Of a DNA stretch of 64,000 nucleotides, positions 9,808-42,780 are shown one piece after another. Numbering within the stretch: the first letter of the stretch is position 1; every line of letters starts with the position of its first letter. The position numbers were made by a program, and so were the translations under genes. This stretch comes from Dehalococcoidia bacterium. Lineage in GTDB: Bacteria > Chloroflexota > Dehalococcoidia > UBA2979. The stretch covers positions 2,432,001 to 2,496,000 of the forward strand of contig OZ253555.1 in assembly GCA_965262725.1 (NCBI GenBank). Reading direction: 5' to 3'. Under the pieces are notes generated by a model, which worked only from the letters and a program-made list of their open reading frames with translations, made no database searches and was not told the origin of the DNA.

Positions 9808-9823
9808 CGGGTGCCTCCTGTGG

Positions 9824-20598: not shown

Positions 20599-20619
20599 AC
20601 GCCGAGGCGACAGTCCCTG

Positions 20620-21244: not shown

Positions 21245-21480
21245 AGAAGGTGCGTGAGGACGGACGCATCGCCCAGGTGAGCGTCGTGGTCGCGACCGCG
21301 GTCAACGCCGATGGGAGACGCGAGGTGCTGGGCATCGACGTCGGCACCAGCGAGGGCGGGGCCTTCTGGCTGGCGTTTCTGCGCGGCCTGGTGGCGCGGG
21401 GGCTCTCCGGCGTCTAGCTGGTGACCTCCGACGCCCACCAGGGCCCGCGGGAGGCGGTCGCCACCGTCTTCGGCGGCACC
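21245..21480 (+). mobile_element. IS256-family transposase internal fragment
   Basis: KVREDGR...VVATAVNADGRREVLG...FW.AFLR.L..RGL.GV*LVTSDAH. Confidence 0.8.
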
Positions 21481-21684
21481 TCCGGCGGGCGCGCGGCGGC
21501 AGCTAACGCGGCTGCACCGAGTACGGGTCGGACCGGCCCTGCGCGTACACGGCGGCTCCCGTACGGACCGGACGGCAGTCGCCTCGCAGGAGGGCGTGAG
21601 TCAGTGCGAGAACTGGCGCCGCCGGTTGATGCGCCCTACCGATGCTCGCGTACGAGAATGCCCGTGCCGGGTGCTCGCGGGGCT

Positions 21685-25500: not shown

Positions 25501-27319
25501 AGCCGTCGGCCCAGATGCCGCGCGGGTCGGCGTTGTCGGGGTGCAGCGCGAGGTCGGAGTCGGGCAGGCGCTCGCCGCTCTCGAGGTCGTGGGCGAAGAG
25601 CTTTTCCTTGCCGCTGTCGGAGATCCAGATGGTTGAGCGGTCCGACCAGACGCCACGAGGCGCGAGGTCGGCGTCATCGAGCTCGAACTCGAGCTCCTGG
25701 ACGCGCTCGCCGCTCTCGAGATCGTAGGCGTAGAGGGCGTCGTCGGCGCCGTCGCCGTTCTCGATGAGCCAGAGCGTGGCGCCGTCGGACCAGGCGCCGG
25801 TAGGTGAGCCGTGGTCGCGGTCGAGTTCCTCGATGTCGCGTGTGATGTTCCACTCGAAGTCCTCGTCGCTCGGCGTTGGGCCGGACGGTCCGCCGCCGCC
25901 ACCACCGCCCCCGGTGATGATCGGCCTGGGGGGTGCGTTGCCAAGCACCGTGACGACGACCGTCGCCGTGGCGGAGGCACCGGCGGTGTCGGTCACCGTG
26001 AGGGTGAGCGTGACCTCTCGATCGCCGACACCGGCCGCGGGCGCGGTCCAGACAGTGTGGAGGGCCCGGTCGTTCGTGAAGGTTCCCCCGCCGTCGCTGG
26101 TCCAGGCGTACGTCAGGGCGTTGTTCTGTGGGTCGCTGGCCGTGCCGTCCAGGACGACCGCCCCGCCTCCGGGCATGGTACTCGTCGAGGCCATGGCGGA
26201 GACCGTCGGCGTCGTGGTCGTCGTGTCGATGACCGTTACGACGACAGTCGGGATGTGCACGGCGTCGTACCCCCCGCCGGAGGCGGTGTGACGGACAAGT
26301 GATACGTCGTCCTGGTGGTCGTCGTCTGCAGCGGCGGAGACCAGGAACGTCCTCTCCCTCGAGTAGTCCTGGGGCGTGAAGGTCAGCGTGATCGGCGCCA
26401 CGGTCACGTCCGGATCTTCTGGCAGTGGTGTGACGGTCACGGGGCCGCTCGGCTGCACAAGCAGCCGCAATGTATAGGCGGCGGGCGGCCCTCCCTCATC
26501 GACACGGCGAAGCCCCGGTGTCAGCGTGACAGCGGGCTCTGGCCTGGTGCCTGGAGACCGCCGGCAGAACTCATCCGACCAGGGACCGACCTCACCGTTG
26601 TTCAAGTCCAGCCTCGCCACCACACAGTAGAGCGTGCCGGGCTGAAAACCACCCGCTAATGTGTACAGCGAACTGGGGACCACCTTCCCGAGAGCGGACA
26701 GGTAGAACCAGGTACCCCTGGTTCCCCATTGCTCACGGTCGACCTCGTCGCTGTAGGCCTTCACGTTATATCGGCTCAGAGGCTTGCTACCCGGGGCATC
26801 GTGCGGCGGGATGTGTTGCCAGAGGCCCGGCGGGGCGTGGGGCTCCCACTGGACCGTCAAACTATTGCGCCAGAATATCCGGGTCTTCGTGATCTTCAGC
26901 GTGTTCTCCTCGGAGGCGGGAATCACGGGTAGCCCGTGGGATCGGGAGTACGTGCCATCGCTCGCGGTGAGCGTGCAGGAGCCGGGCTGCGCGTCTGCTG
27001 ACACTGACGCGGTGATGTCCCAGGCTGCCCAACCCTGGGTGGCCAGGTCAGCCGCGAGTACCGCCGTGACGGCTTCTTCGTAGTCAATCTCGACTCCGTC
27101 AGGGCAGTCGGAGTGGCTGAGCGTGACGGTGTCCCCGACCACAAACCCCTTGACGATCGCGGTCGTGGACTGATTGTCCCGGCCGATGACGATCGGCTTC
27201 AGCGTGTAGAAGTAGTGGCTGTGCGCCGATGCCGTGCGAGGCTGCTCTAGGTCCGACGCGAGTGCGAGGGCCGCGATCGTTGCCAGCAGGAATAGGGTGC
27301 CGTGGGCCCTCCATGACAT
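22551..27319 (-). pseudogene. secreted surface protein (FN3/Calx/PKD-like N-terminus, poly-Gly hinge, shared C-terminal module) interrupted by IS1380
   Basis: Signal peptide from ATG 27319, hinge IITGGGGGGGGPSGPTPS, GIWSDG repeats. Removing the IS and one CGTAG restores LFAYDLAGG. Confidence 0.85.
23794..25452 (-). mobile_element. IS1380-family element, copy 2; TSD CGTAG; transposase 24016-25341
   Basis: Ends CTCGAATCCACCG...GGTGGATCAGGG; CGTAG at 23789-23793 and 25453-25457. Confidence 0.95.
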
Positions 27320-27534
27320 CGGGCACCCCTCCCTCCACTTCGTGCGCGGAGGCACTTGGCCTCGTGTCCCGGTGGAGCGGTTCCTGGCGGGCGACGACGC
27401 CCCGCCTAACCATTAGTGCCCAAGCTACACTTCGTGACAGCGTACTCTTATGCGAGACATATAATGTGCGTTGTCCGGCAGATCTCACTCGTGGGAGGGG
27501 GCTACAACCTGTTTGAGCTGCACCGCGGAAGCAG

Positions 27535-27945
27535 CGGGACGTCCTCGACCCGCGTGCTGACGATCGACCGGGGGACGAGAGCGTGGCGGCGGAGTTCCGG
27601 TGGCGTCCGGCGGAGCGGTGAGTCTGCGCACGGGAGCGACGGTGATGCGCGTGAACGTGGATGACGCTCACGGCGCGTCGTGGGGGGCCTCCTACGCCGC
27701 CGTCGCGGTCGGCGACGGCGGCGAGTGGCGTCAGGCCGATGACTGCTGGGTGCGCTACCGGGTCACATCGCCACCCGCGAGCACGTTGGCTGCGAGGAGG
27801 GCCTTTGGTGTGAGATGGGTGACGTCCGCGGCCACAGGCTGCACGGGGGACATCGCAAGACGCGCGGAGCCCAGCGCCGCATGGGATCCCGAGCTTCTCG
27901 ACCAGGATGACGTGACGTCGCCGATCCGCCACGGCCCGTGTGCAT
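27535..27945 (+). pseudogene. degraded paralog fragment of the 59013-60836 lipoprotein
   Basis: TVMRVNVDDAHGASW...EWRQADDCWVRY.VTS matches about 59950-60300. Confidence 0.7.
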
Positions 27946-28077
27946 TCCGGTCACGGCTCGCGATGTGATCCTGGCGCTTCACGTTGGCCCACCGCCGAAG
28001 TGTTCCAACCGCACTGGATTGGCCCTACGCGTGCAGCTGCATGTCACCCGGCCGCTCGTGCCCGCAAGGACTGGCTG

Positions 28078-28612
28078 ATGCCCGAGGACCTGGTGTTCAC
28101 CGTGCAGCCCGGCGTTGCCCGGCGGGCGCACTCGATCAGTCTGGCGGAGGCGGGGCTCCGTGAACGGGCCGATCTCCAGGAGTGGGTGCGCAAGAACCCC
28201 GAGATCCTGGGCAGCGGCGTTCGCATCGTGACCTTCGAGTTCGGTGCCTGGCAGGCGCGTGATGGACACGCCTCCGATCGGCTCGACCTACTGGGGTTGG
28301 ACGATGACGGGCGCCTCGTGGTCGCCGAGCTCAAGCGCGGCCCGTCTCCGGACACGGTGGAGATGCAGGCGATCAAGTACGCGGCCTTCGCGAGTCGCTT
28401 CACCGCGCAGACCCTGGCCGAGCGCCACGCCGAATACCTGTCCCGAGTCGCCGGCGTCACCGTGTCGGAGGATGAAGCCCGCGAACAGCTCGAGGAACAC
28501 GCCGGTGGTGAGCTCGACCCCGACCTGCTCCGTCAGCCGCGGATCATCCTGCTGGCGGCGAGCTTTCCCCCGCAGGTGACGGCGAGCGCGGTCTGGCTGA
28601 CCGAGATGGGCA
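28078..28612 (+). pseudogene. PD-(D/E)XK endonuclease (NucS/DUF4268-like), truncated
   Basis: ERADLQEW...PEIL, DRLDLLGLD..G.LVVAELKR, QAIKYAA; breaks off into unrelated DNA. Confidence 0.75.
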
Positions 28613-28850
28613 GCCGTGATGGTCAGCGGAACCGTGCCGCCTTCGGCCACCTCTCCAGCGCCTGCCGAGAACGTGACGGCCGCCACGTCGTTGTCGTTCA
28701 CGGTCACAGTGGCCGAGTTGATGGCGCTTGTCAGGTAGACGGGAGGACTGGTCGTGCTGCCCAGGATGAGGGCCGTCACCGTGCCGGGGGCTCGACGACG
28801 CTGTCGTCGAGTGTGAGCACGGCGAGGTCGGCCGTGGCGTCGTCGCTCCA
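28612..28850 (-). pseudogene. Calx-beta/Ig-like domain fragment
   Basis: SATVTVNDND...VAEGGTVPLTIT. Confidence 0.45.
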
Positions 28851-28959
28851 GGGATCGCGCGGGGCGACACATCGTTTTGCGACCTTGAGGGGCGGCGGTC
28901 CAAGCCGGGCTTCGCTGGGGTCAGAGTGCTCAGCCATGTATCAGCGGGGCGGGCGCGGT

Positions 28960-29301
28960 CTAGACGGCCTCGGGCTGAAGGGCCGGAACCTCGACCTCGA
29001 CCAACTCGAATCGCGTCGAGAGCGTCTGGGGGGCGTCGCCATCTTCGGCCAGCAACTCCTCGTCGGCATCGGAGAGGGCCTGGCTGTGGTACGCGATGGC
29101 GTCGTCGATGGACATCGTGGGCTCCGGTACAGGGTCGCCGTCCTCTACCAGGGCCTCGATGTGGAATGTGAGCGCCTCGCGAATCATCGCGAGCATCTCA
29201 TCGGGGGTGCCGGCGGTGCTGATGCAGCCCGGCACGTCCGGCGCGTAGGCGCCGTAGTTGTTCGGGGTCTGCTCAATGACGACTGCGTACGTCAGCTTCA
29301 T
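28960..29301 (-). CDS. hicB: HicB-family antitoxin
   Basis: YAVVIEQTPNNYGAYAPDVPGCISTAGT.DE.....REAL.FHIE. Confidence 0.88.
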   Translation of the reverse strand: MKLTYAVVIEQTPNNYGAYAPDVPGCISTAGTPDEMLAMIREALTFHIEALVEDGDPVPEPTMSIDDAIAYHSQALSDADEELLAEDGDAPQTLSTRFELVEVEVPALQPEAV

Positions 29302-29452
29302 CGCGAATCCCCGCGGAGGCCTGCCTGTCTCCGGATGTTGAGCCACGTACCCCTTGGCACTTCATCCCCCAAGTTGCCCGGAATCGTGACCGTGCCCGGC
29401 TTCTCGGGGTGGCGAAAGTGGCGGTGGCTGCCCCGCGTCCTCACATGGTACG
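29298..29452 (-). pseudogene. hicA: HicA toxin, 5' truncated
   Basis: HVRTRGSHRHFRHPEKPGTVTIPG...GTWLNIRRQAGL. Confidence 0.8.
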
Positions 29453-30727
29453 GTCGAGTGTCGGGTCGACAATAGTGGTCCGCCCCACCTCCAAACCCGG
29501 GCGATAGTCCTCCTCCCGGCAGGCACCCAGTAGCAGTACTCCGGGTCTGTCGATGAACTCTCGGGCGAAGTCGGACCAGCCATCGGTGGCGGGACGGCCG
29601 AGGTTGTCGGCGCACAGCAGCAGCGGATAGTGCTCGGACGGCTCTTGCAGCCAGAGCCACCGCGCGAGCGTCGGAACGTCTTCGGGCAGGAGCCGCAGCA
29701 GTCGATACGGGCGCGTCCTCCCCGAGAGTGTCCGGGCCGTCCGCCACATGAGCGCCGACTTTCCTGCTCCCGAGGGTGCCGAGAGCAGCGCCGAATGCCG
29801 TTCGCTCAAAGCCTCCGTAATCGCTTGCACCTCGGCGTTGCGGGGCAGATCGAGGTCGGCTGCTATGTGGGCGGGCAGCACGTCGACGCCCGTCAGGAAT
29901 TCTTCGATGGGCAGATCGGCCCGCACACCGAAGTCCACCGGCTCGACGAGTCCGGTACGAACTGCCTCGTCGAGACTCTCGACATCCACCGTCTGGATTA
30001 CCCGCGTCGCGAGTGTCTCCAGGTCGGACGGCGTGATCGACTGGGCGGTGTCGGGTGTGGCCGAGCGCTGCCGAGCCGCGATCTCGGTGATCTCTTCCAC
30101 TAGCCGCGCGTAGACCAGGACGGCTGCAGACGGCTGACTCCCGATTGCGCGCAGCCCAGCGAGCTCGCGTCGAGTGTCTTCGACGACACTTCGCTCCACC
30201 TGCACGATGTGGGTTCGGGCCAGGACCGCCTTGGGATCGTCGAAGTCGGACTCGAGGCGCGAGGCGAGTTCGTCGACACTGGTTCGGTCAACGCACTCCG
30301 TAACAGGCCGATCCCAGCCAGTCGGGGCCAGGCCGCCGCCAAGCGTCGCGTCTGTCACCAGGGCGAACCGGCGAGACGCTTCTCGTTCGAGGAGAGTGTT
30401 CTTCTTCCGCAGGGCGTCCGCGAGGTTCGAACGTCCGAAGCGTGCCGACGGAGCACGTTCCTTCACCTGGACGAGCACCCGAGTGCCATCCCTGAGTTCG
30501 ACATCTATGTCTTCGGAGCCCTCGGGGGTCGCGCGGGCCAACGGAAACCTGCCTGCAAGTGCGTCGACAAGCAGCTTCGCGGTCACCGCGACCTGAAAGC
30601 TCACACCCGCAATGTTGTGAGCGCCAGCACGGCTTCAGTCCTGCTCGGGGGCGCGAGGAGGTGCCCCGCTCGCCACTGGCGGGCTTCGTCTCTTAACTCG
30701 ACCCCGACGCTGCTTCCGTTGGCTCAT
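29441..30727 (-). pseudogene. restriction-like nuclease fused to P-loop NTPase (Cap4/Mrr-like plus STAND-like); nonsense codon and 3' truncation
   Basis: AG.HNIAG.SFQ, EDIDV...VQVK (PD-(D/E)XK-like), APSGAGKS Walker A, LLLCADN. In-frame TGA at 30637-30635. Confidence 0.7.
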
Positions 30728-30970
30728 AGCAGTACGTGCGTGCTCCCACCTCAGCAGCCTACCCCTTGGTATCGCTTACTACCCGGGACTGACCCGAGGG
30801 GTTGCGCTCACAGGCTCAAGCGCGGCCGGCGCGAGTCTGCCACGTTGAGACTCACCATTGCCGACGGACAGGAGAAGCTGACATCAGCGCGGCTCGATGT
30901 GAACATGTCGTTGACATTGTCAGATAAATCGGGGTACCGTCGTCGTGCTCGGAGTTGCAGGAGAGCGAAC

Positions 30971-31624
30971 GTGGCGGAACTGGACCGTTTCGACAAGACC
31001 TTCACCGCTGGCTGGAGAGCCGCGTTCAACTACGCCCGCGGTGGTACTGCCTCAGATAGGGAGGTCGGCGACAAGCTGATGAAGTCGCTGGCGAAGACCC
31101 TGCGAGAACAGGGAGGCGTTCCTGGCCTGCGTGAGATGAGCGAGGTAGTCGTGAGTGGCCTCGGCTCTCCGCTCGACGAGCACTTCGCCGCGTTGGACCG
31201 CATCGTCCGCAATCATCACGGTCACCGCCAGACGAAGGTGGCGGCGGGGGCCGCAAAGTTCCTCCTCGTATCCCAGGAGGCGGTCACTGCGCCAGGCCCC
31301 GGCACTGGCGTCGTCGACCAGTTCGTCACCCGAGCGTGCGAGGCCATCATCGAGCACAAGTTCTTCGCCAACGCTCGGCAGCACCTGGTCACCGAAGGAA
31401 AGCTGCCAGACCACGCGGCAGCCTACGACTGGCAGCGCCGGATCGAGCACCTCAATCGGCCTGCGGTGGAGAGGATTGCCGGCCAACTGCTAGAGAATCC
31501 AAGTGCAGAAGGTCTGCGGGCGCCAAGGCGGACCGTGCCAACGGAATCCATCAGCACGCTCCTCTACGAAGACCTGCTCCCGTCGGGAGCGCTAGACCCC
31601 GCGCCGGCAAGGCTGCCGCAGTGA
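30971..31624 (+). CDS. hypothetical protein coupled to the QueC-like gene (QatB-like position)
   Basis: AGGAG RBS before GTG 30971; its stop overlaps the next start (GTGA). Confidence 0.7.
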   Translation: MAELDRFDKTFTAGWRAAFNYARGGTASDREVGDKLMKSLAKTLREQGGVPGLREMSEVVVSGLGSPLDEHFAALDRIVRNHHGHRQTKVAAGAAKFLLVSQEAVTAPGPGTGVVDQFVTRACEAIIEHKFFANARQHLVTEGKLPDHAAAYDWQRRIEHLNRPAVERIAGQLLENPSAEGLRAPRRTVPTESISTLLYEDLLPSGALDPAPARLPQ

Positions 31625-32985
31625 ATCTTGAGCCCTTTTCCTATGACTTCACCGTCCATCCCCGGGACGTAGGCCTTCACAGCACTTGTTGGATGGATGG
31701 TGAGGACCTGTCGCGCCCCTTCAGCGAAGCGCTGCCTCCGGATGCAGCCGACTTGCTGGACCTCGCGCTGGCGATATACGCCGCCGACCGCTCTTCGCGG
31801 CGTGACTTCAAGCGCTCGAACACCGGCCAGCGCCGCATTGATGTTCGGCTTGCGCTGAGGAACCCTGACTATTGGACCGCGCCCGGGACGGCTGATCGCC
31901 TCCAGGAGTTCCTCTATTGGCTCAGCGAAGACGAGTGGTCGTTTCGTCTTGAGCAACGAAGAGCCGCTCGGACCCCCGCCGAGTCCGGGGCGTTCCTTTT
32001 CAAGGTTCCCCTAGAGCCTCCGGTCGCCGTCTCGCTGTTTAGCGGCGGCTTGGACTCCCTTGCCGGGCTCGCGTGCCGAACAACGGAAGACCTTGGTGGG
32101 TCGCGCGTACTCGTCTCCGGATACACCCACAACCGTCTGCTCAGCCAGCAGCGATCGCAGGTGCAGCACATCAGGTCGGTGCTCAATGAGCGCTCTCCCG
32201 GCGCGGGCTCAAGAGTCACGCACGTGGCGGTCGGCTTCGGCATGCGCCGGCCTGAAGGAGGCTGCGGGGAGAAGGGGCAGCGTACACGCGCGCTGGTCTT
32301 CCTCGCCCTCGGAGCGACTGCAGCCGCGCAGGCGGGCACCGACACGCTGTGGGTCTACGAGAACGGCGTCGGAGCTCTGAACCTCCCCATCAATGAGACG
32401 CAACTCGGCGTCGACAACTACAGAGGCGTCCATCCTCGCTCCCTCAGGCTGTTCGAGGCCCTGGTTGAGCCTGTACTCGGCCGTGAGGTCCGCGTGAGGA
32501 ATCCTTTCCTGTTTCACACGAAGGCCGAGATGTGCCGGTCATTGCTCCCAGCCGGACTCGCCGGTGCGGTGGAGCACACGATCACTTGTGACAGCTTCCC
32601 GATGCGCATCCCCGACCAGGCGCCGCAATGCGGCCACTGCACCTCGTGTGTTCTTCGGCGGCAGGCCCTCCACGCCGCTGGATTGGGCAGGTACGACCCT
32701 GCCGCCGCATACCGGCACGACGTGCGCACGGAGCGGGCGGTGCTGAGCAACGACAACGCCTACGACGTCGAAGCAATGCGCGGCCAGATCCAGCGGCTGG
32801 AACAGGCCCTTGTTTCAGGCGATCCGTGGCGATCCCTCATGGCTTCGTTTCCAGAACTCGGGCGGATCAGCACCGAACTCGGACGGTACGATGGCCTGAA
32901 CGCGGCGCAGGTCGGCGCCAAGTTCGTCCGCCTTTTCCAGACCTACGTGCGCGAGTGGCGGCGGTTCATGCCACAGTCCGACTAA
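31621..32985 (+). CDS. QueC-like PP-loop ATPase of the long defence-associated (QatC/Cap9-like) type
   Basis: VSLFSGGLDS PP-loop, QRTR..VFL, YENG...LNLP, HP, NPF...TKAEM, TCDS...CGHCTSCVLRR Zn site, N-terminal DLLDLALAIYAADR extension. Confidence 0.88.
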   Translation: MNLEPFSYDFTVHPRDVGLHSTCWMDGEDLSRPFSEALPPDAADLLDLALAIYAADRSSRRDFKRSNTGQRRIDVRLALRNPDYWTAPGTADRLQEFLYWLSEDEWSFRLEQRRAARTPAESGAFLFKVPLEPPVAVSLFSGGLDSLAGLACRTTEDLGGSRVLVSGYTHNRLLSQQRSQVQHIRSVLNERSPGAGSRVTHVAVGFGMRRPEGGCGEKGQRTRALVFLALGATAAAQAGTDTLWVYENGVGALNLPINETQLGVDNYRGVHPRSLRLFEALVEPVLGREVRVRNPFLFHTKAEMCRSLLPAGLAGAVEHTITCDSFPMRIPDQAPQCGHCTSCVLRRQALHAAGLGRYDPAAAYRHDVRTERAVLSNDNAYDVEAMRGQIQRLEQALVSGDPWRSLMASFPELGRISTELGRYDGLNAAQVGAKFVRLFQTYVREWRRFMPQSD

Positions 32986-33002
32986 CAACCCGGGAGGTTT
33001 CC

Positions 33003-34232
33003 ATGCCACAGCACGAGACGCTGGCTCTCGACCCTCGCGCACTGGGCCGACGCCTCCAGGAGGCGAGAAAGGCTCGCGGGCTCACGCAGCAAGACGCCGC
33101 TGAGTCGCTCGCAGTAGCTCGGACGACGATCACCGCGATCGAGAAGGGTGACCGACAGGCCCGCCCGGACGAGCTCATCCGGCTAGCGAATGTCTACGGC
33201 AGGCGGGTCAGCGATCTCGTCGGCCCGAAAGAACCCATCGCGGACTTCGCCGCCCAATTCCGCACGGCGGCCGTCCGCGGTGCCCCTGACGATCTGCAAG
33301 AGGAAATGAGTCAGGCGCTCCGGGACTTTCAGGATCTGTGCCAAGACTACTTGTACCTCGAGCAGTTGAGTGGAGTGTCGCCCGGACCCACCTACCCGCC
33401 CCAGTATCCGACGACCGGGACGGCTCCCGAGGAGGCCGCCCAGGATGTCGCCTCATTCGAACGCAACCGACTGGGTCTCGGCGATGGACCGATACTGCGC
33501 CTGAGGGAGACGCTTGAGCAGGACGTAGGCCTCCGCGTGTTCTCCATCGCGATGCCCTCGCGGGTGGCGGGCATCTTCGCCTACACGGACGAGTTGGGCG
33601 GTTGCATCGCCGTCAATGCTCGCCATCCGGCAGAACGCCGGCGATGGTCGCTGGCCCACGAGTACGCCCATTTCCTGACGAGCCGCTATCGGTCGGAAAT
33701 CTCCTTTCTGGGCTCGCGCCGTCGCGTCCCCGCGACCGAGCGGTTCGCTGACACCTTTGCCCGCTGTTTGCTCATGTCGGAGTCCGGGCTACGCCGCAGG
33801 TTCAACGAACTGGTGAGAGCCAGTGCTGGTAACGTCACCGCTGCAGATGTTTGCCGGCTTGCGCATTACTACTTCGTCTCCGTCGAGGCAATGATGCTGC
33901 GCCTCGAGGAACTCGGTGTCGTCCCGGGAGGTACCTGGGAGCGCCTGCGTGACCGGGGGTTCAAGGCCCGGGAAGCTCAGGAGCACCTCGGCCTGCCACC
34001 GCATCCGAGCGATGATCGGCTCCTGCCGTATCGCTACGAGTTCTTGGCCGCGCGTGCATATGAAGTCGGAAGTCTGACTGAAGGGGAGCTGGCGCGGCTC
34101 CTGCGGACCGACCGTGTGTCGGCTAGGCGGACCCTCCAGAGGCTGGGCAGTGCGCTGCATGTGCTCGACGGAGGGGAAGTGGCGTCTCTCCCGATAGAGC
34201 TCGCTGGCAGCGTCACGAAGCCGGACTCCTAG
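33003..34232 (+). CDS. XRE-family HTH fused to ImmA/IrrE (M78) Zn-metallopeptidase
   Basis: LGRRLQEARKARGLTQ..AA...RTTI.AIEKG; RRRWSLAHEYAH; E.FAD.FA..LLM. Confidence 0.92.
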   Translation: MPQHETLALDPRALGRRLQEARKARGLTQQDAAESLAVARTTITAIEKGDRQARPDELIRLANVYGRRVSDLVGPKEPIADFAAQFRTAAVRGAPDDLQEEMSQALRDFQDLCQDYLYLEQLSGVSPGPTYPPQYPTTGTAPEEAAQDVASFERNRLGLGDGPILRLRETLEQDVGLRVFSIAMPSRVAGIFAYTDELGGCIAVNARHPAERRRWSLAHEYAHFLTSRYRSEISFLGSRRRVPATERFADTFARCLLMSESGLRRRFNELVRASAGNVTAADVCRLAHYYFVSVEAMMLRLEELGVVPGGTWERLRDRGFKAREAQEHLGLPPHPSDDRLLPYRYEFLAARAYEVGSLTEGELARLLRTDRVSARRTLQRLGSALHVLDGGEVASLPIELAGSVTKPDS

Positions 34233-34244
34233 GGTCGAGCCACT

Positions 34245-34805
34245 GTGGACCGACGACCTGCGAGCCTCATTCTCGACGCCAGCTGCCTGCTCAACCTCTA
34301 TGCCACCAAACGCTTCGGGGAGATCCTGGCGTCGTTGCCCGAGCAAGTCGGTGTCGCGGACTACGTTCTTGAGGAGGAAGCTCTCTTCATCCGCCGTGAG
34401 CCTTCCGCCGATGGCGAGGACGACCAACTCCTCGTGGACCTGTCTCCGTTTGTGTCCGAGGGCTTGGTGGAAGTGATGCGCCTGGCGAGTCCAGCCGAAG
34501 AGACCACGTTCGTGACCCTTGCCGCCCTGATCGACGACGGTGAGGCGGTGACATCAGCTCTAGCCTTCCACCGTGGGTGCTCCGTCGCGACGGACGACCG
34601 CAAGGCTAGGCGTGTCCTCGCTGAACAGGCCCGGACAGTCCCGCTTGTCTCCACACTTGACCTCGTGAGCCAGTGGCAGGAGACGATGTCCGTGCCTCTA
34701 GGCGAGCTTCGGACCGCGCTGGAGCGCATGCGCTCCGGCGCTAGCTACGTGCCTGGTCCCCGCGATCCCCGCTACGGGTGGTGGCTGGACGTCATGCAAA
34801 GCTAG
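34245..34805 (+). CDS. PIN-domain protein (putative RNase toxin)
   Basis: LILDASCLLNL, V.EE, DDGEA...A, VATDDRKAR. Confidence 0.8.
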   Translation: MDRRPASLILDASCLLNLYATKRFGEILASLPEQVGVADYVLEEEALFIRREPSADGEDDQLLVDLSPFVSEGLVEVMRLASPAEETTFVTLAALIDDGEAVTSALAFHRGCSVATDDRKARRVLAEQARTVPLVSTLDLVSQWQETMSVPLGELRTALERMRSGASYVPGPRDPRYGWWLDVMQS

Positions 34806-35149: not shown

Positions 35150-35370
35150 TCGCAAGGTGATCCAGTCATCGGCTGGAAGGTGATCCACTCCGGGGCAGCG
35201 CCCAGCATGTTCGGCGGCGGGGGCCGCGAACGCTGGGGGAGAGGATGCTTCGAGTGGAGGAAGTCCATGTACTCCGGCACAAGGTGCTGGTCGAGGGCCA
35301 GAGCCGACGCCGGGTGGCGCGCGAGATGGGTATCAGCCGCAACACGGTGCGGCGCTACCTGACGCTCAGC
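35150..35370 (+). mobile_element. IS21-like left end and istA 5' fragment
   Basis: Repeated AAGGTGATCCA motifs; [26 protein letters not shown]. Confidence 0.7.
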
Positions 35371-35756
35371 ACGCCCGGGGTGGAGCAGCTGGAGGCGCGC
35401 TGTTCCGAGGCCGTGGCGATGCTCGCCGACGCCGCGGAGGAGATCCTGGCGTTCACGGCCTTCCCGGTCACGCACTGGCGGCAGATCTGGTCGAACAACC
35501 CCCAGGAGCGGCTCAACAAGGAGATCCGCCGGCGCACCAACGTGGTCGGCATCTTCCCCAACCGCTCAGCGGTCATCCGGCTCATCGGTGCAGTGCTCTC
35601 TGTGAATCGCCAGGATCTATAGACCAGCAAACGGCGAGATCGCCAGGGTCTATGTGCCACTTCGCCAAGGTCATTGAGCCACCCCTCCGGGGGGTCTGAC
35701 CACTCGGGCCGCCGGTACGGCCACCATCGCCTGCATCCCCAGCGGAGGGAGCAGCG

Positions 35757-37337
35757 ATGGCCTACCGGGAGGTACACGGGGTGGAGATCCAGGAGATCAT
35801 TCGACGCTGGCAGGCGGGGCTCAGCCAGCGCCGCATCGCCAGCGGGATGGGGTTGTCGCGTCAGACGGTCCGCCGCTACATCGACGCGGCCGAAGCGGCC
35901 GGCCTCACACCTGACGGTCCCGAGCCGAGTGAGGAGCAGCTCGCCGCGCTGGCGACGCTGAGCCTCTCCGGCCCGCGGCAGGTCGAGGCGCCGAGCGAAG
36001 AGCTGCTCTCGCCCTGGGCGGAGCAGATCGAGCGCTGGCTTGAGACCGACCGCCTGCAACTGACGCGCATCCAGGAGCTCCTCGCCGGACGAGGCTGCGA
36101 GGTCTCCTACACCACGCTGCGGCGTTTCATCCGGCGCCGCGGCTGGCGCCACCGGCTGCCGTCGACCGTGCGCATGGACGACGGGCCGCCGGGCGAGGTG
36201 GCGGAGATGGACTTCGGCCGCCTCGGCTTCATCCGGGACCCCGAGAGCGGCCGCCGGCGCGCGGTGTGGGCGCTGGTCGTCGTCTGGCGCTACTCCCGCC
36301 ACTGCTTTGTGTGGCCCACCACCAGCCAGAAGCTGGACGCTGTGATCGAGGGCCTGGAGGAGGCCTGGGCCTTCTTCGGGGGAGTGCCCCGCTACCTCGT
36401 CATCGATAACTTCCCGGCCGCCGTCGCCGGGGCCGACGCGCTGCACCCGCGCTTCACGCGGGGCTTCCTCGAGTACGCCCGCCACCGCGGCTTCATCACC
36501 GACCCCGCGCGCGTGCGTCATCCCCGCGACAAGCCGCGCGTCGAGCGCAGCATCCCCTACGTGCGCGAGCGCCTCTTCAAGGGCGGCGACTTCCGGGACG
36601 TCGTCGACCTGCGCTCCGCCGCCCGCAGCTGGTGCCTGGAGGTGGCGGGACAGCGCATCCACGGCACGACCCGCCGCCGGCCGCTCGAGGTCTTCCGGGA
36701 GGAGGAGCTCCCTCTCCTCGCTCCCTGGGACGGCGAGCCCTACGAGGTCCCCGACTGGCGGACCGCCACGGTCCATCCCGACCACCACATCGCCTGCCAG
36801 TACGCGCTGTACTCGGTGCCGTCCACGGCCTGCCCGCCCCGCCAGAAGGTCGAGGTGCAGCTCGGCTCGAAGCTGGTGCGCATCTACCACCGCGGTCAGC
36901 TCATCAAGGTCCACCCGCGCCAGCGCCGGGGCGGCCGCGCCACCGACCCGAACGACTACCCGGCCGAGCTCACCCCCTACACCAGGCGGGCGCCCGACTG
37001 GATACAGCGCCGCGCCGCCGAGCTGGGGGAGGCCGTGGGCGCCTACGCCGAGCGTCTCTTCGAGGGCTCCCTGCCCTGGGCGAAGCTCCGGCAGGGCCAC
37101 AAGCTGCTGCGCCTCGCCGAGCGCTACTCCCCGGACCGCCTCGACGCCGCCTGCCGCCGCGCGCTCGAGGTCGACCTCATCGACGTGCGCCGCCTCGAGC
37201 GCATCCTCGTCGAGGCCCTCGACCAGGAGAGCACCCCAGACCAGCCCGAGCTGCCGCCGCCTCCGGGGCGCTTCGCCCACTCGGGCTCCGTCTTCGCCCA
37301 GTCCCGCGCGCAGACCCCGACAGGAGCACCACGATGA
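35757..37337 (+). CDS. istA: IS21 transposase IstA
   Basis: HTH, PGEVAEMDFG, LVIDN, P.DKPRVER. Confidence 0.95.
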   Translation: MAYREVHGVEIQEIIRRWQAGLSQRRIASGMGLSRQTVRRYIDAAEAAGLTPDGPEPSEEQLAALATLSLSGPRQVEAPSEELLSPWAEQIERWLETDRLQLTRIQELLAGRGCEVSYTTLRRFIRRRGWRHRLPSTVRMDDGPPGEVAEMDFGRLGFIRDPESGRRRAVWALVVVWRYSRHCFVWPTTSQKLDAVIEGLEEAWAFFGGVPRYLVIDNFPAAVAGADALHPRFTRGFLEYARHRGFITDPARVRHPRDKPRVERSIPYVRERLFKGGDFRDVVDLRSAARSWCLEVAGQRIHGTTRRRPLEVFREEELPLLAPWDGEPYEVPDWRTATVHPDHHIACQYALYSVPSTACPPRQKVEVQLGSKLVRIYHRGQLIKVHPRQRRGGRATDPNDYPAELTPYTRRAPDWIQRRAAELGEAVGAYAERLFEGSLPWAKLRQGHKLLRLAERYSPDRLDAACRRALEVDLIDVRRLERILVEALDQESTPDQPELPPPPGRFAHSGSVFAQSRAQTPTGAPR

Positions 37338-38107
37338 CCGCCACCACCTCAGACCTCCGCCCGCTGCTCAAGCGCCTCAAGCTCGGCCGTATGCTCGACA
37401 CCCTGCCCGAGCGCATCGCCCTCGCGCGGCGCGACCACCTCGACTACGCGGACTTCCTGCAGATCCTGCTCGTCGACGAGGTGAGCCGCCGCGACCACGG
37501 GCGGTTGGAGCTGCGCCTGCGCCAGGCCGGCTTCGAGCAGCTCTGCCGCCTCGAGGACTTCGACTGGGCGGCCGCCATCCGGCTCGACCGCCGCCTGCTC
37601 GACGCCGCCTTCTCGCTGCACTTCCTCGACCGCCGCGAGCACGTCCTGCTCGTCGGCCCCGTCGGCGTCGGCAAGAGCTTCTTAGCCCAGGCGCTCGGCT
37701 ACTCAGCCGTCCGCTCCGGACGCAGCGTCCGCTTCGCCCCGGCCGACCACTACTTCCGCGAGATGGCGCAGGCCCGCGTCGACCACTCGGCCGAGAAGGT
37801 CTTCCGAAGCTTCCTCGCGCCCGACCTGCTCATCCTCGACGACCTCGGGCTCCATCGCCTCAGCGCGCAGCAGTCCATCGACCTCTACGAGCTGGTCATC
37901 GGGCGCCACCGCAGCTCGAGCTTCGTCATCACCTCGAACCGCGCCGTGGAGGAATGGCTGGGTCTCTTCGACGACCCGATCCTCGGCAACAGCGCCCTCG
38001 ACCGCCTCGCGAACGCCAGCTACCAGATCGTGATCGAGGGCGATAGCTACCGCCAGCGGCTCTCGCCGCACCGCGCCCTGCTCGAGGCGCAGACGGGAGG
38101 TGATTGA
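37334..38107 (+). CDS. istB: IS21 helper ATPase IstB
   Basis: GPVGVGKS, LLILDDLG, SALDRL; overlaps the istA stop. Confidence 0.95.
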   Translation: MTATTSDLRPLLKRLKLGRMLDTLPERIALARRDHLDYADFLQILLVDEVSRRDHGRLELRLRQAGFEQLCRLEDFDWAAAIRLDRRLLDAAFSLHFLDRREHVLLVGPVGVGKSFLAQALGYSAVRSGRSVRFAPADHYFREMAQARVDHSAEKVFRSFLAPDLLILDDLGLHRLSAQQSIDLYELVIGRHRSSSFVITSNRAVEEWLGLFDDPILGNSALDRLANASYQIVIEGDSYRQRLSPHRALLEAQTGGD

Positions 38108-39811
38108 CGCGCTAGACGCTCACTGATATCAAGCCGCCTACCGGCGTCCCGGGTGGTCTAATCTCGAATCCACCGAACGAAGCTTGACGAGGCGGGGTGC
38201 CGGGCTGCCGGAGAGTTCGACGGGTGTGTCGGCGTTCGCCGGGCGGCGCCGGGGGCGGGCCGGAGCCAGGAGCCGTCGCTCAGCACCGCTCGGGGGCGCT
38301 GAGGGTGCGGGCGCGAGGGTGCGCGAGGCGTGGGCGGGCATGCTGGCGCGAGCTTCGGCTCCGGTTCGGCGCTGTGAGCGGGCGTCAGGTCGGGAGCGGT
38401 ATCGCCCGTAGTCGCGCGAGCGCGGCTGCCAGCTGCCCGGCCCAGGGCCAGCGCTTCGGGAGGTGCAGGGTCCACCGCCGGGCAGAGTGGGTGAGCCGTC
38501 CGGCGAGAGAGAAGTAGCGCCGCCTGAGCGTCCTGGTCGTCACGATCCCCTCGCCGAGCCCGAGGCGTGCCGTCCAGCGGGCGAGGTTGTGCGCGATCAC
38601 CTGCACCGCGAGCCACGCCGCGTTCGCGGCGAAGCGGCCCGAGGGGAGATGGTTCAACCCGACGCCGTACTTGAGGTCGCGGATCGCGTTCTCGATCTCG
38701 GCGTGACGGCGATGGTCGGCCTCCAGCTCCATCATCTCCCCCGCGCGATCGGTGATGAAGGCGTGGTAACTGTAGTTCACGAAGAGCGCGAGCTGTGAGC
38801 CGGGCGTCGGCTTGACGCGCCGCACGATGAGCCGCACCGCGGTGGCGTCCCTCGTGTGCTGGAACGGCGTGTAGGTCGTCTCGGCGACAGCGGCGCCGTC
38901 GTCCTGCCAGTACGGGATCGGCGTCCAGTCCTCTTCCGGTATCGCCTCGATCAGCCGGCGTACGTTCGGCTGCTGGCGAATGGTGATGGAGAAGCGGACA
39001 TCCTGCTTGCGACAGACGGCGACGACAGCGTGGTTGTAGAAGCCGCTGTCGGCGCGCACCGTGAGCTGCCCGCTCGCCCCGGCGTCGCGCACCCGGCCCA
39101 CCGTCTCACGCAGGAAGTGGGCGGCCCCCCGAGCGGTGTTGGCACGGCCCCCGCGCAGCCGGGCCATCAGCACCTCACCCGTCCCGGCCGCCACCGCGAG
39201 CAGCGGGTGATAGCCGCGCACGCCCGTGTAGCCGTGGTGCCGGGCGCCCTCTTTCGCCAGTCCGTAGGTCTCGCAGAGCGTCGAGTCGAGGTCGATCGTG
39301 AACGGTGCCGCGCCGGGTCCCGCCCCGGCCGCCCAACTGCGGGCCAGCAACTCGCGGCTGACGCGGTCGAGCTGGCGGACGTGGCCCCAGCGGAAGCTGC
39401 GCAGGAACGTCCCGAGGGTGGACGGCGCCTTCACCGTGCAGCCGAGCACGCGCCCGGCGCCGCCTGAGCGCATGGCATCGGCGTCATCGATGCAGTCGCC
39501 GCCCGCGAGCGCCGAGGCGATGAGAGTCATCAGCTTGTCGCCGACGTTCGCCCGCCCCGCTGCGTCACCGAGGTCGAGGTGGGCGTCTGCCAGTTCACGG
39601 AGGCCGAGCCGGCCAGCGAGCGTGGCCGGGAGCAGCAGGCCCGCGTGGTCCACGAGGCGGTCGTCGTCGAAGGCGATGTGTATCCGGTCGGGGCTGCTCG
39701 TTGCTAACATCGAATGGGTGCTCCCTGTGGCTGTGACGTGATTCGGTCAAAAACCATTGTCCCAGCTACAGCGGAGCACCCAACCCCAGCCGCTCGCGCA
39801 CTCTTCTTCGG

Positions 39812-42148: not shown

Positions 42149-42382
42149 ATGATCGAGTCTGGAATCACCTCGAAGGGACAGACCACATTGCCACGAGCAG
42201 TGCGCGATGCGCTCTGCCTGCACGCTGGTGATCGGGTGCGCTACCTCATCCAGGATGGGGAAGTCAGGATCCTGCCGGTACGCCCCATCGCACGGCTCTT
42301 TGGCGTACTACGGCATGACGGCCCGGCCGCGACCCTGGACGACATGGAACGCGCCGTCGTCGATGGGGCCACCGACGCGTGA
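42149..42382 (+). CDS. AbrB/MazE-family antitoxin
   Basis: ITSKGQTTLPRAVRDAL.L.AGD. Confidence 0.9.
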   Translation: MIESGITSKGQTTLPRAVRDALCLHAGDRVRYLIQDGEVRILPVRPIARLFGVLRHDGPAATLDDMERAVVDGATDA

Positions 42383-42780
42383 TTGCCGTCGACACGAACG
42401 TCGTCGTGCGATATCTCGTGGCCGACCATGCTGAGCAGGCAGATGCAGCTCGGGCATTACTGGAGCGGTTGACGCCTGAGCGCCCAGGCTTCATCTGCCG
42501 CGAGGTCGCACTTGAGGTTGTCTGGGTACTGGAGCGGGCCTACGGGTTCACGCGCGTCCAGATCGCAGACGTTCTCATGGAGTTGATCGCCACCGACAGC
42601 ATTGTTGTGGAGGCCGCGGACGACATGGCCCGTGCGGTCTATGCCTATCGCCAGGGTGGTGTCGGCTTCGCGGACCTCATGATCCTCTCAGCGGCTGAGC
42701 GGGAGGGAGCTGCACCCCTCCACACCTTCGACCGCCAGCTTGCGCGGATGAACACGGCGGTCCTTGTGGAGAAGCGGTAG
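42379..42780 (+). CDS. vapC: VapC-family PIN toxin
   Basis: IAVDTNVVVRYL, E..WVL, FAD.MI, TFD; overlaps the antitoxin stop. Confidence 0.9.
   Translation: MIAVDTNVVVRYLVADHAEQADAARALLERLTPERPGFICREVALEVVWVLERAYGFTRVQIADVLMELIATDSIVVEAADDMARAVYAYRQGGVGFADLMILSAAEREGAAPLHTFDRQLARMNTAVLVEKR

Follow-up and report, generated by a model that had tools for sequence, protein, structure and literature searches.

Four intact genes on the plus strand, at positions 30971–34805 of the window (the whole 64-kb stretch of DNA that was analysed), are in our estimate somewhat more probably than otherwise a self-repressed operon, most likely anti-phage or abortive-infection in function, that makes up its own branch within the QueC-family (Qat) defence systems. 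Sequence comparisons and structural models together suggest that it is most likely a defence variant of the Qat family where QatA and QatD would be replaced by an XRE-M78 repressor and a PIN nuclease. The preliminary description of the locus, as a distinct architecture made of a QueC pair and an ImmA-PIN pair, is supported, and each computational check named there as able to refute it gave a favourable result.

Organization of the locus

The four-gene unit was confirmed from the sequence, including the GTGA overlap between ORF1 and the QatC-like gene and the gaps of 17 and 12 nt reported earlier, with all coordinates correct. Its features are the following:

30911–30940, plus strand: candidate promoter with operator (TTGACA, palindrome, possible −10 box)
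30959–30963, plus strand: Shine-Dalgarno AGGAG, 7 nt 5′ of the gene 1 GTG, read from the sequence
30971–31624, plus strand: gene 1 (ORF1), putative QatB-like partner, 217 aa, GTG start, N-terminus M-A-E-L-D-R-F, all-helical
31621–32985, plus strand: gene 2, QatC-like PP-loop ATPase, 454 aa, extended at both termini
33003–34232, plus strand: gene 3, XRE-type HTH plus M78 (ImmA/IrrE) metallopeptidase, 409 aa, after a 17-nt gap
34245–34805, plus strand: gene 4, PIN-like nuclease, 186 aa, after a 12-nt gap, proposed effector or toxin

GGAG-type motifs occur at the position equivalent to the Shine-Dalgarno in most related loci, and the translation of ORF1 begins with M-A-E-L, as previously noted. 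The surroundings had been called decayed, in accordance with a divergent upstream NTPase shortened to 387 aa (its counterpart in L001, the closest relative, has 1318 aa) and with a Mutator transposase fragment 3′ of the cassette, followed by IS21, an IS1380-like element and group II intron genes. As part of its defence context, the window also contains genes for HicAB, PIN, ParE and HEPN proteins, together with numerous IS copies. Profile searches (Pfam, PADLOC, NCBIfam) of the cassette retrieved no match to QatA, QatD or a CD-NTase, three components already described as lacking.

Gene 2 is a QatC-like enzyme

On the evidence of profiles and motifs, gene 2 is a QatC homolog in which the ATP loop and the zinc cysteines are kept. 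It matched the PADLOC QatC model (4.6e-47) and the QatC structure 9zee_B in the PDB (E 1e-27), and scored 178.8 bits with NCBIfam QatC, under the cut-off of 280. The FSGGLDS loop lies at residues 140–146 and the cysteines are C323, C337, C340 and C343; SGGLDS, D44 (corresponding to QatC D63), RxRxxxF, HP, P(x)4TK and the four Cys are invariant in the family. Indeed, the SGGLDS loop and Cys cluster of this protein and the HEYAH motif of gene 3, all noted as intact in the preliminary description, proved to be present and invariant, or for E220 of gene 3 nearly so, in family alignments, and the long N-terminal extension noted there is accompanied by a C-terminal one, both of QatC type. QatC T278/T280 are replaced by Y267/G269, inside an invariant GVDNYRGVHP, so that neither the YxD of Cap9 nor the TxT of QatC, the nucleobase-contact residues, is present as such.

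Plasmid homologs carry the PGAP label "7-cyano-7-deazaguanine synthase" and Pfam QueC matches the C-terminal half of gene 2 (3.1e-9), as would be expected if gene 2 were a metabolic QueC paralog making a 7-deazaguanine compound with gene 3 as its regulator. This is highly improbable, given the score of 20.3 with the TIGR00364 QueC model (cut-off 150.3), the QatC-type extensions and signature motifs, and the failure of E. coli QatC to complement a queC deletion, as stated in PMC13329287. An obligatory partner, a PIN protein and a peptidase would also be out of place in such a pathway, and the window ORFs scanned yielded no gene for deazaguanine synthesis. In particular, no match to QueD, QueE, FolE or TGT, none of which had been noticed before, was obtained with Pfam (E ≤ 1e-7) among 124 of the 172 window ORFs of at least 110 aa and a further 16 scanned separately, the approximately 33 ORFs outside the scan being those that overlap confidently assigned genes in another frame or strand.

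The cassette recurs in distant genomes and on plasmids

With the QatC-like protein alone as query, 80 related loci were found. The order small helical protein, QatC-like, XRE-HTH/M78 and PIN-like was observed in 67 of them, spanning at least seven phyla; in one locus the contig ends after XRE-M78, and 12 are without both XRE-M78 and PIN. Among cultured Alphaproteobacteria, the cassette was also annotated on plasmids from Labrenzia, Methylocystis, Sinorhizobium and Agrobacterium radiobacter. Of 11 plasmid PIN relatives (E ≤ 1e-5), the 10 that are in annotated records or adjoin a QatC-like match all lay in the cassette; the 11th is in an unannotated record. Co-occurrence of the QueC pair with the ImmA-PIN pair, on which the preliminary description depended, is therefore borne out, and the four genes are a recurrent unit, beyond a chance neighbourhood. 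No fifth conserved gene was found in the flanks of related loci. Between the window and L001 a DNA identity of 91.9% extends from 30911, the base immediately before the palindrome, to 34806, the base that follows the PIN stop; at the protein level identity was 96% for XRE-M78, the most conserved of the four, 91% for PIN, 87% for the QatC-like protein and 76% for gene 1. In a quick tree, the QatC-like proteins of the cassette all fall on one side of a single branch, with modest support (SH-aLRT 83). Searches with PADLOC, NCBIfam, Pfam and PHROGs gave no complete named system and no description of the four-gene cassette was found in the literature searched, in line with the earlier view of the operon as a candidate undescribed one.

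The cassette is carried by conjugative or mobilizable plasmids and is found next to IS elements, systems of the ImmA/IrrE type are DNA-damage-responsive and govern mobile elements, and the gene 3 HTH is nearest to ImmR of ICEBs1 (PDB 7t8i_A, E 7e-7). These features would suit a function other than phage defence, namely a growth-arrest or addiction module of mobile elements induced by DNA damage or stress, with the modification of gene 1 serving to regulate the element. We regard this as quite unlikely: the characterised proteins closest to gene 2 act in defence, and the chromosomal copies have varied flanks with no integrase or conjugation gene conserved alongside. Moreover, AbiE and an N6-methylase adjoin the cassette on plasmids, and in 10 of 20 diverse loci, surveyed without a background control, PADLOC gave one or more matches in the flanks at E ≤ 1e-10. 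Overall, AbiE, type I R-M, PD-T4-5/6 and PD-Lambda-3 matches are among the neighbours.

Gene 1 is predicted to dock on the QatC-like enzyme

Gene 1 belongs to no Pfam, NCBIfam or PHROGs family and showed a weak match to PADLOC CARF_m11 (E 9.6e-4). Its AlphaFold2 model has ten helices (pLDDT 91.6), and the first-ranking Foldseek match in the PDB was QatB (9y02_A), weakly (E 0.33, TM 0.34). The NCBIfam and PADLOC QatB models missed gene 1, yet detected two canonical QatB controls, and hhalign against QatB gave a probability below 1%; as far as these profiles can tell, gene 1 is unrelated to QatB in sequence. Its family comprises 1046 representative proteins at E ≤ 1e-3 and has the N-terminus M-[P/A/S/T/V]-[D/E]-x-D. 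Among the best 150 of the 1046, residue 2 is P in 120, A in 10, S in 5, T in 3, V in 2 and G in 1, residue 3 is D in 107 and E in 27, and a Trp is found at position 15 in 106.

The predicted complex of gene 1 with the QatC-like protein had an ipSAE of 0.89 (0.86–0.90 in three runs), the best of three controls reaching 0.00; at least 60% of contacts were common to all runs and the partner pLDDT was at least 77. The mark used for this score is reached by 116 of 157 solved complexes and 2 of 215 mismatched pairs, counts that apply only roughly here because our own alignments were used. The predicted interface involves residues 3–9 of gene 1 and residues 254–267 and 377–422 of gene 2, the latter aligning with the QatC loop N265–H282 and C-terminal extension, both QatB-binding according to PMC13279940. 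Gene 1 is thus predicted to dock on gene 2 via the elements that hold QatB in crystal structures, although likeness to the solved QatBC structures may partly account for the score. Together with the family-wide conserved N-terminus, the modelled complex backs the earlier proposal that the upstream protein is the substrate of the QueC-like enzyme. As regards canonical systems, PMC13279940 describes the N-terminal Gly of QatB as essential, and a QatD-QatB interaction is reported in PMC13434339.

Putative regulator, PIN-like nuclease and candidate operator

In gene 3, Pfam searches identified HTH_3 (residues 18–71, 4.3e-13) and Peptidase_M78 (residues 173–301, 3.2e-17), followed by about 100 C-terminal residues that matched no family; PADLOC matches were RmrA (3.3e-24), capP (1.4e-14) and capH (8.2e-10). 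The predicted HExxH...E peptidase site is intact, with HEYAH at residues 219–223 and H219, H223 and E246 invariant across 38 homologs, E220 being nearly so. Gene 4 matched Pfam PIN under the cut-off (E 0.0047, 18 bits against 23.6). Its AlphaFold2 model (pLDDT 94.6) had PIN/VapC proteins as top Foldseek matches (probability 1.00, E 2e-3, TM by target 0.6–0.69), and in 45 homologs E45, D98 and D117 are invariant and D11, D97 and D118 nearly so. Fold prediction and alignment hence support a PIN fold with conserved acidic residues, as the preliminary description had it.

Upstream of gene 1, the −35 box TTGACA (30911–30916) is embedded in the palindrome TGACATTGTCA (30912–30922), and a possible −10 box, TACCGT (30935–30940), follows after a spacer of 18 nt; we infer the latter from the aligned TACTGT of L001. 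A consensus promoter scan called no promoter at the candidate site, and no long inverted repeat was reported at the locus. The 11-bp palindrome is the sole match in the 64-kb window with one mismatch allowed. Among 68 cassette loci, 55 have an exact TGACAWTGTCA 5′ of gene 1, as do 2 plasmid loci, but none of 12 non-cassette loci has it. The motif occurs once per locus of about 15 kb except for L072, which has two. It lies 41–59 nt 5′ of the start codon in most loci, and a relaxed form was found within 130 nt of the start in 51 of the 58 upstream regions examined. In the only promoter region that can be recognised, the −35 box is thus overlapped by the conserved palindrome. This candidate operator, which the preliminary description did not mention, agrees with the regulatory role assigned there to XRE-ImmA; the XRE-M78 protein may be a sensor, an antitoxin or simply a repressor.

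XRE-M78 and PIN-like pairs are also found without the QueC pair, on plasmids of Rhizobium sp. N621 and Salinibacter ruber, with PIN-like proteins related to the cassette PIN family (hhalign 96.7% and 95.1%), and the halves of the cassette may therefore be separable modules. Since both halves can stand alone and, according to PMC13279940, canonical QatBC without QatA/QatD defends against some phages, shared transcription need not mean shared mechanism. The locus could thus hold two independent modules under one promoter, a minimal QatBC-like defence pair and a Rosmer-like toxin-antitoxin pair. In the latter, XRE-M78 would be both antitoxin and repressor and PIN the toxin, and the pair would do no more than stabilise or regulate the locus. 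The RmrA match of gene 3 would fit, as would the pairing of ImmA-type antitoxin nodes with PIN-like toxins described in PMC10440598. We consider this arrangement possible but rather doubtful, because the linkage across phyla is kept in fixed order and tight spacing, the palindrome is confined to the 5′ side of gene 1 and never occurs between genes 2 and 3, the QatC-like proteins of the cassette lie on one side of a single branch in the tree, modest as its support is, and the plasmid PIN relatives were in the cassette in every checked case.

Proposed mechanism

In the preferred reading, a single self-repressed defence operon, a dimer of the gene 3 XRE-HTH would sit on the palindrome and keep expression low, as family knowledge suggests. 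A phage or DNA-damage cue would activate the M78 domain, with cleavage of the repressor and derepression of the operon, comparable to ImmA/ImmR, IrrE/DdrO and CapP/CapH. The QatC-like enzyme would then couple an ATP-activated carboxylate to the free amine at the N-terminus of gene 1; the acceptor exposed by loss of methionine would be Pro in most homologs and Ala in the window, not Gly. N-terminal proline is a secondary amine, and we know of no QueC-family enzyme shown to acylate it. More speculatively, modified gene 1 might act on the XRE-M78/PIN pair, directly or via its conserved C-terminal tail, and the PIN nuclease might cut RNA or DNA and so stop the infected cell.

Comparison with known systems

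In CapH/CapP, ImmR/ImmA and DdrO/IrrE, cutting of an HTH repressor by a peptidase is thought to switch the operon on. The cassette has the same HTH and M78 components, as the capP, capH and ImmR matches indicate, but a single 409-aa protein, which has a further C-terminal region, combines repressor and peptidase, and the regulator gene lies inside the regulated operon instead of being divergent. As in Rosmer (RmrT/RmrA), an RmrA-type gene 3 (N-terminal HTH plus ImmA/M78) precedes a small toxin-like gene 4, and PMC10440598 counts PIN-like toxins among the classes that partner this antitoxin node; unlike Rosmer, gene 4 gave no match to the RmrT model, and the pair is coupled to a QueC-family enzyme plus partner, with one operator 5′ of the whole operon.

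With Cap9 of type IV CBASS, which deazaguanylates the N-terminus of the CD-NTase, the cassette shares a QueC-family enzyme, the proposed use of the N-terminal amine of an adjacently encoded partner as acceptor, and a Tyr (Y267) at the position of the base-stacking Tyr of Cap9 and QueC. However, there is no CD-NTase or Cap10 in the cassette, the Asp of YxD is Gly, and the acceptor would be Pro or Ala instead of Gly. Cap9 had been listed beforehand as a long QueC homolog, which has to be corrected, PMC13329287 describing it as short (about 185 aa); it keeps the canonical QueC motifs.

QatABCD differs in having the KAP NTPase QatA and the TatD nuclease QatD where the cassette has XRE-M78 and PIN-like proteins. 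The cassette partner is unmatched by QatB models, is without the disordered tail of 30–90 aa and begins M-P/A-[D/E]-x-D instead of MGTS, while the enzyme scores under the NCBIfam QatC cut-off, has Y and G for the invariant T278 and T280, and G for the W of D(x)4R(x)7WxR. Nevertheless, by the motif list in PMC13329287, gene 2 has both extensions, the SGGxDS loop, the D63 equivalent, RxRxxxF, HP, P(x)4TK and the four-Cys zinc site. Likewise, a small all-helical partner is encoded directly 5′ of the enzyme gene and overlapping it, is predicted to sit on the same loop and C-terminal extension, and has a conserved N-terminus with a residue 2 that permits methionine removal and a Trp about 15 residues in.

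A four-gene cassette conserved across phyla

Re-reading of the sequence confirmed the coordinates, order and spacing of the four plus-strand genes at 30971–34805 (here the cassette), which a preliminary description had proposed as a candidate undescribed defence/stress operon with QueC-like, XRE-ImmA and PIN proteins.

Genes of the cassette
30971–31624, +, gene 1 (ORF1), 217 aa, GTG start, AGGAG 7 nt 5' of the start
31621–32985, +, gene 2, QatC-like enzyme, 454 aa, GTGA overlap with gene 1
33003–34232, +, gene 3, XRE-HTH/M78 protein, 409 aa, after a 17-nt gap
34245–34805, +, gene 4, PIN-like protein, 186 aa, after a 12-nt gap

Conservation of the four-gene neighbourhood, a check proposed in the same description, was assessed in 80 loci retrieved with an alignment of 22 gene 2 homologs, the genes being located by tblastn with the four proteins of the window. 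The QatC-like, XRE-M78 and PIN-like genes were found with order and spacing kept in 67 of the 80 loci, one further locus (L063) has its contig end right after the XRE-M78 gene, and both downstream genes are missing from the other 12. No fifth conserved gene emerged from an all-against-all comparison of the flanking ORFs of the 80 loci. The cassette is common: its carriers among these loci belong to Chloroflexota, Gemmatimonadota, Acidobacteriota, Verrucomicrobiota, Actinomycetota and Deferribacterota, and to them are added Alphaproteobacteria. A protein search of a plasmid collection found all four genes on plasmids of cultured members of this class (Labrenzia, Methylocystis, Sinorhizobium, A. 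radiobacter), cultured Rhizobiales being among the carriers, and adjacent match coordinates place the cassette also on plasmids of Bosea, Pannonibacter, Rhizobium leguminosarum, A. tumefaciens, Shinella, S. fredii and Roseomonas. In cultured carriers it is located, for instance, at 25250–28953 of plasmid NZ_CP045347 (Labrenzia sp. THAF187b), at 18453–22195 of pAoF64/95, NC_019555 (Agrobacterium radiobacter), and in locus L062 (Propionicicella superfundia DSM 22317). On plasmids it is annotated as 'hypothetical / 7-cyano-7-deazaguanine synthase / XRE family regulator / hypothetical or PIN'; the enzyme is currently mis-annotated as a '7-cyano-7-deazaguanine synthase' beside hypothetical proteins.

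A quick maximum-likelihood tree was built from 82 QatC-like proteins (without loci L032, L034 and L046, where the open stretch from the match start is shorter than 330 aa). In it the cassette type forms one side of a single branch whose SH-aLRT of 83 is not strong, and neither the two canonical QatABCD enzymes nor the 12 non-cassette loci fall on that side. Departures from the compact layout were observed in related loci: the cassette is interrupted in L017 (8356–11303) by ~2 kb inserted inside the XRE-M78 gene and in L025 (5408–7001) by ~1.6 kb between gene 1 and the enzyme gene, and in L029 (9595–10631) the PIN match is shifted by ~1 kb.

A candidate operator upstream of gene 1

Comparison of the upstream regions across loci revealed a palindrome, TGACAWTGTCA, 5' of gene 1, which in the window lies at 30912–30922, with no second match in the 64 kb even when one mismatch is admitted. 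The exact 11-mer was found in 55 of the 68 cassette loci and also on plasmids, in two loci. It invariably lies 5' of gene 1, with one copy per ~15-kb locus (two in L072), and the 12 non-cassette loci all lack it; further plasmids carry close variants. Of 58 upstream regions, 51 have a relaxed form no more than 130 nt before the start, most often between −41 and −59. Consensus promoter and inverted-repeat scans of 30600–31000 found nothing, a 5+1+5 palindrome being shorter than the length limits of such scans. The window and its closest relative, L001, share 91.9% DNA identity over a stretch that starts a single base 5' of the palindrome, at 30911, and ends a single base 3' of the PIN stop, at 34806.

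Five bases are common to the palindrome and a TTGACA −35 hexamer, an arrangement that would suit one promoter serving all four genes, with a dimeric HTH repressor bound over its −35 box. We infer that gene 3 supplies this repressor through its XRE domain; that gene 3 is better conserved than the other three proteins agrees with this.

Gene 2 encodes a QatC homolog

The gene 2 product is clearly a homolog of QatC, the QueC-family enzyme extended at both the N- and the C-terminus, scoring 178.8 bits with the NCBIfam equivalog (under the cut-off of 280), 4.6e-47 with the PADLOC model and E 1e-27 with the solved QatC 9zee_B. Kept in its family are SGGLDS, D44 (D63 of QatC), R221xR223xxxF227, E247xG249, H271-P272, P295(x)4T-K and C323(x)13C-G-x-C-x-x-C-x-x-R-R. 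We rejected its identity as a canonical QueC, the preQ0 synthase, as TIGR00364 matches its C-terminal part only, with 20.3 bits where 150.3 are required; the canonical QueC motifs are YxQxHxxE, VPxRN and YPDC (PMC13329287). The sequence differs also from that of QatC, whose invariant T278 and T280 are replaced by Tyr267 and Gly269, inside an invariant GVDNYRGVHP, and whose Trp in D(x)4R(x)7WxR is replaced by Gly69; where QatC has its two threonines, QueC and Cap9 have the nucleobase-binding Tyr/Asp. The first substrate of gene 2 need not be the same as that of QatC or Cap9.

Gene 1 encodes a predicted partner with a conserved N-terminus

Gene 1 belongs to no Pfam, NCBIfam or PHROGs family and gave a weak PADLOC CARF_m11 match (E 9.6e-4). 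In nearly all cassette loci an upstream ORF of ~200–230 aa terminates where the QatC-like gene begins. Sixty such ORFs were compared, omitting eight cassette loci (one near-duplicate, the others with the upstream ORF truncated, displaced or at a contig end), and in 57 of them residue 2, directly after a start codon, is P (44), A (6), V (6) or T (1) and residue 3 is acidic. A profile search of 1.84 billion representatives (50% identity) enlarged the family to 1046 members at E ≤ 1e-3, 600 of them at E ≤ 1e-10. Among the best 150 of the 1046, which are independent gene calls, residue 2 is P in 120, A in 10, S in 5, T in 3, V in 2 and G in 1, residue 3 is D in 107 and E in 27, and residue 15 is Trp in 106. 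It is established that methionine can be removed before any of the common residues at position 2 (cited in PMC13376578).

The remark in the preliminary description that the partner begins MAEL, and not with an N-terminal Gly, extends to the family: the window protein starts MAELDRF, the plasmid versions MSDGPH...W15 and the family M-P-[D/E]-x-D. An alternative start further upstream was rejected: none with an MG motif exists, although the frame is open from 30209, and the homologs of all phyla begin at the same M-P/A-[D/E], in stop-to-stop frames that are barely longer.

The AlphaFold2 model of gene 1 (pLDDT 91.6) has ten helices, the first of which begins at residue 3, so that no long disordered tail is present. 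Foldseek placed QatB (9y02_A) at rank 1 of 350,542 chains, weakly (E 0.33, probability 0.66, TM 0.34). Searches of the PDB by sequence and by profile retrieved chance-level matches only, such as a glutathione transferase and designed helical proteins, and the look-alikes in the ESM Atlas (all <0.9, unnamed viral clusters, low recognition) gave no lead. The start MPE[L/G]D resembles the N-terminus of Fpg/Nei glycosylases, in which Pro1 is the nucleophile; homology with them is not supported, the gene 1 model being all-helical and no Fpg/Nei chain appearing among the Foldseek matches listed. At the other end of the protein a conserved motif, LRAPxR...T..LL.E.L, was observed at residues ~176–217 (window 31496–31624), in a tail of low model confidence that lies outside the predicted gene 2 interface and to which the peptidase or the PIN protein might dock.

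Predicted complex of gene 1 and gene 2

When the ORF1-QueC complex was modelled, as the preliminary description had proposed, genes 1 and 2 reached an ipSAE of 0.89 (runs 0.86–0.90) vs 0.00 for all three controls, with at least 60% of the contacts common to the runs and a partner pLDDT of at least 77. Solved complexes reach the score mark in 116 of 157 cases and mismatched pairs in 2 of 215, counts that hold only roughly because our own alignments were used. The confident interface includes residues 3–9 and 46–152 of gene 1 and, on the enzyme side, residues 254–267 and 377–422, plus 218–220, 324 and 341–342, which are near the active site and the zinc site. Enzyme residues 254–267 and 377–422 align with the loop N265–H282 and the C-terminal extension of QatC, by which QatB is bound in the crystal structure (PMC13279940). 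The score of the modelled complex shows likeness to QatBC and is no proof of binding; part of it may be due to likeness to the solved QatBC complex.

Gene 3 and gene 4 as a possibly separable module

Gene 3 combines an XRE-type HTH (residues 18–71), an M78 ImmA/IrrE peptidase with a conserved HExxH...E site (173–301) and ~100 residues without family. It is matched by 15 PADLOC RmrA models (best 3.3e-24, residues 16–309, in a database without curated cut-off) and also by PADLOC capP and capH, and the closest solved structure to its HTH is ImmR of ICEBs1. Gene 4 stays under the gathering score of Pfam PIN (E 0.0047, score 18 against 23.6); its AlphaFold2 model (pLDDT 94.6) has a Foldseek probability of 1.00 to PIN/VapC structures, and in 45 homologs E45, D98 and D117 are invariant and D11 nearly so. 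By its modelled fold the protein is PIN-like, and the PIN acidic positions are conserved.

More distant gene 3 relatives (27–29% identity) occur in Rhizobium sp. N621 and in Salinibacter ruber, on plasmids, as the first member of two-gene units that come without a QueC pair. The downstream protein of these units matches the cassette PIN family (hhalign 96.7% and 95.1%).

Stand-alone XRE-M78 + PIN-like pairs on plasmids
L088, 2986–4769
L089, 2995–4864

In L088 a different palindrome, GACAT-AGA-ATGTC, lies beside TTGACA upstream of the XRE gene itself. As for the other half, canonical QatBC alone protects against some phages (PMC13279940), and QatBC and QatD have been called autonomous units, with a QatD-QatB interaction reported (PMC13434339). 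Since stand-alone XRE-M78 + PIN pairs exist and QatBC can defend alone, the cassette looks like the union of two separable modules; its persistence in several phyla as a single operon with a single operator speaks for a joint function, without proving it.

Genomic surroundings

The window (64–72% G+C), whose nearest relatives are Chloroflexota (Dehalococcoidia) assemblies, holds the cassette in a mobile, defence-like region.

Features around the cassette
7537–7938, 42379–42780, 61667–62461, 62828–63505 and 35–1798, scattered toxin-antitoxin/defence-type domains: HicA/HicB run-on ORF, PIN (57.6 bits), ParE, HEPN, Schlafen AlbA_2/HATPase_c_4
9070–11458, −, IS21-type element (IstA/IstB)
13042–14367, +, IS1380-like (DDE_Tnp_1_4) transposase gene, 441 aa
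24016–25341, −, IS1380-like transposase gene, 441 aa
28960–29346, −, HicB, and within 29298–29747, −, HicA; the pair adjoins the STAND NTPase fragment
29441–30604, −, STAND NTPase N-terminal fragment, 387 aa (1318 aa in L001)
35245–35622, +, Mutator-family transposase fragment, 125 aa, last 70 positions matched, directly downstream of the cassette
35757–38107, +, IS21-type element (IstA/IstB)
38385–39710, −, IS1380-like transposase gene, 441 aa
39884–41368, −, reverse-transcriptase gene (RVT_1), 494 aa
44353–45837, +, reverse-transcriptase gene (RVT_1, identical score), 494 aa
49839–57884, −, 2681-aa ORF with subtilase, P-domain, fibronectin III, cadherin and Big_9 domains

Homology to L001 in the STAND NTPase region ends at 29451. 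Two of the three IS1380-like copies are near-identical, judging from their identical Pfam scores, the two RVT_1 genes in opposite orientation are probably group II intron copies, and the 2681-aa ORF probably encodes a giant surface protein. The plasmid copies of the cassette have AbiE systems and an N6-methylase next to them. A PADLOC scan of 99 flanking ORFs from 20 diverse loci (of 116 selected from 24 loci) gave at least one match at E ≤ 1e-10 in 10 of the 20 loci, a raw count without background set and with some generic matches; examples are type I R-M, AbiEii, PD-T4-5/6, PD-Lambda-3 and DrmD.

Interpretation and comparison with known systems

The cassette would be best described as a new, putative defence variant of the Qat/QueC family joined to a Rosmer-like XRE-M78/PIN module. 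The interpretation put forward in the preliminary description is supported as far as computation goes, and to it are added the phylum-spanning operator, the family-wide Pro/Ala-acidic N-terminus of the partner and the occurrence on plasmids of cultured bacteria. A bolder reading, which we consider rather improbable, is that the QueC-family ligase was retargeted from N-terminal Gly to an N-terminal Pro (or Ala, Ser, Val) that precedes an acidic residue, which would make a new N-terminal conjugate that links phage sensing to a protease-gated PIN nuclease; the modified gene 1 protein, perhaps via its LRAPxR...T..LL.E.L tail, would then trigger M78 self-cleavage and release of the nuclease.

In the QueC/Qat papers searched by keyword, neither a QueC-family enzyme with an M78 or PIN partner nor a proline acceptor is mentioned. 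PMC13329287 reports qatA or qatD near only ~34% of QatC-cluster genes, which leaves room for a variant such as the cassette. The QatC reaction and the effect of QatB modification are stated as open questions in PMC13279940 and PMC13376578. By keeping the enzyme-partner core and replacing the obscure QatA/QatD by easily assayed parts (a repressor with an 11-bp operator, a metallopeptidase and a PIN nuclease), the cassette makes it testable what is attached and what the modification does, and such recognisable output parts could make it a useful test system for QatC-type enzymes. If it defends, a widespread subtype is added that no single-protein model scan here named as a system; if the acceptor is truly proline, the chemistry of protein N-terminal modification is widened.

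A second, unnamed QatBC-like lineage was found in the 12 non-cassette loci, L061, L064, L065, L067, L068 and L073–L079 (e.g. L067, 6072–8818). Its QatC-like protein has 606–709 aa with a long extra C-terminal part (NCBIfam QatC 208.6 bits, under the cut-off) and is preceded by a partner of ~260–270 aa starting MGH[T/V]RLG..P..R.W, which matched no PDB entry or QatB model; no XRE-M78, PIN gene or TGACAWTGTCA was found in these loci. By hhalign this partner matches the gene 1 family with a probability of 65% (E 6e-5, columns 13–61 only), which is suggestive of kinship and no proof of it.

With QatABCD the cassette shares, in the prediction, the mode of the 1:1 QatB-QatC complex via enzyme loop and C-terminal extension. 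QatB differs from gene 1 in starting with MGTS, which leaves Gly first once Met is removed, and in having a disordered tail of 30–90 aa, and the QatB models of NCBIfam and PADLOC, which match two control canonical QatBs starting MGTST...PLVPSW, do not match gene 1 (hhalign probability <1%). The QatA KAP-family NTPase and the QatD TatD nuclease, already noted as absent in the preliminary description, matched none of the four genes, whereas the canonical control loci carry both. Type IV CBASS has a CD-NTase and the TGT-like protein Cap10 beside a short Cap9, whereas gene 2 is 454 aa long and QatC-like, and neither a CD-NTase nor a TGT family was found among the window ORFs scanned. With Rosmer, gene 4 matches no RmrT toxin model (weak PDC-S70 matches, best 1.3e-4), and gene 3 fits RmrA, the antitoxin with HTH and ImmA-type zinc peptidase, by domains and matches. 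Of switches of the ImmR/ImmA and CapH/CapP type, in which a signal makes the peptidase cleave the HTH repressor, the cassette shows the domains and a conserved candidate operator.
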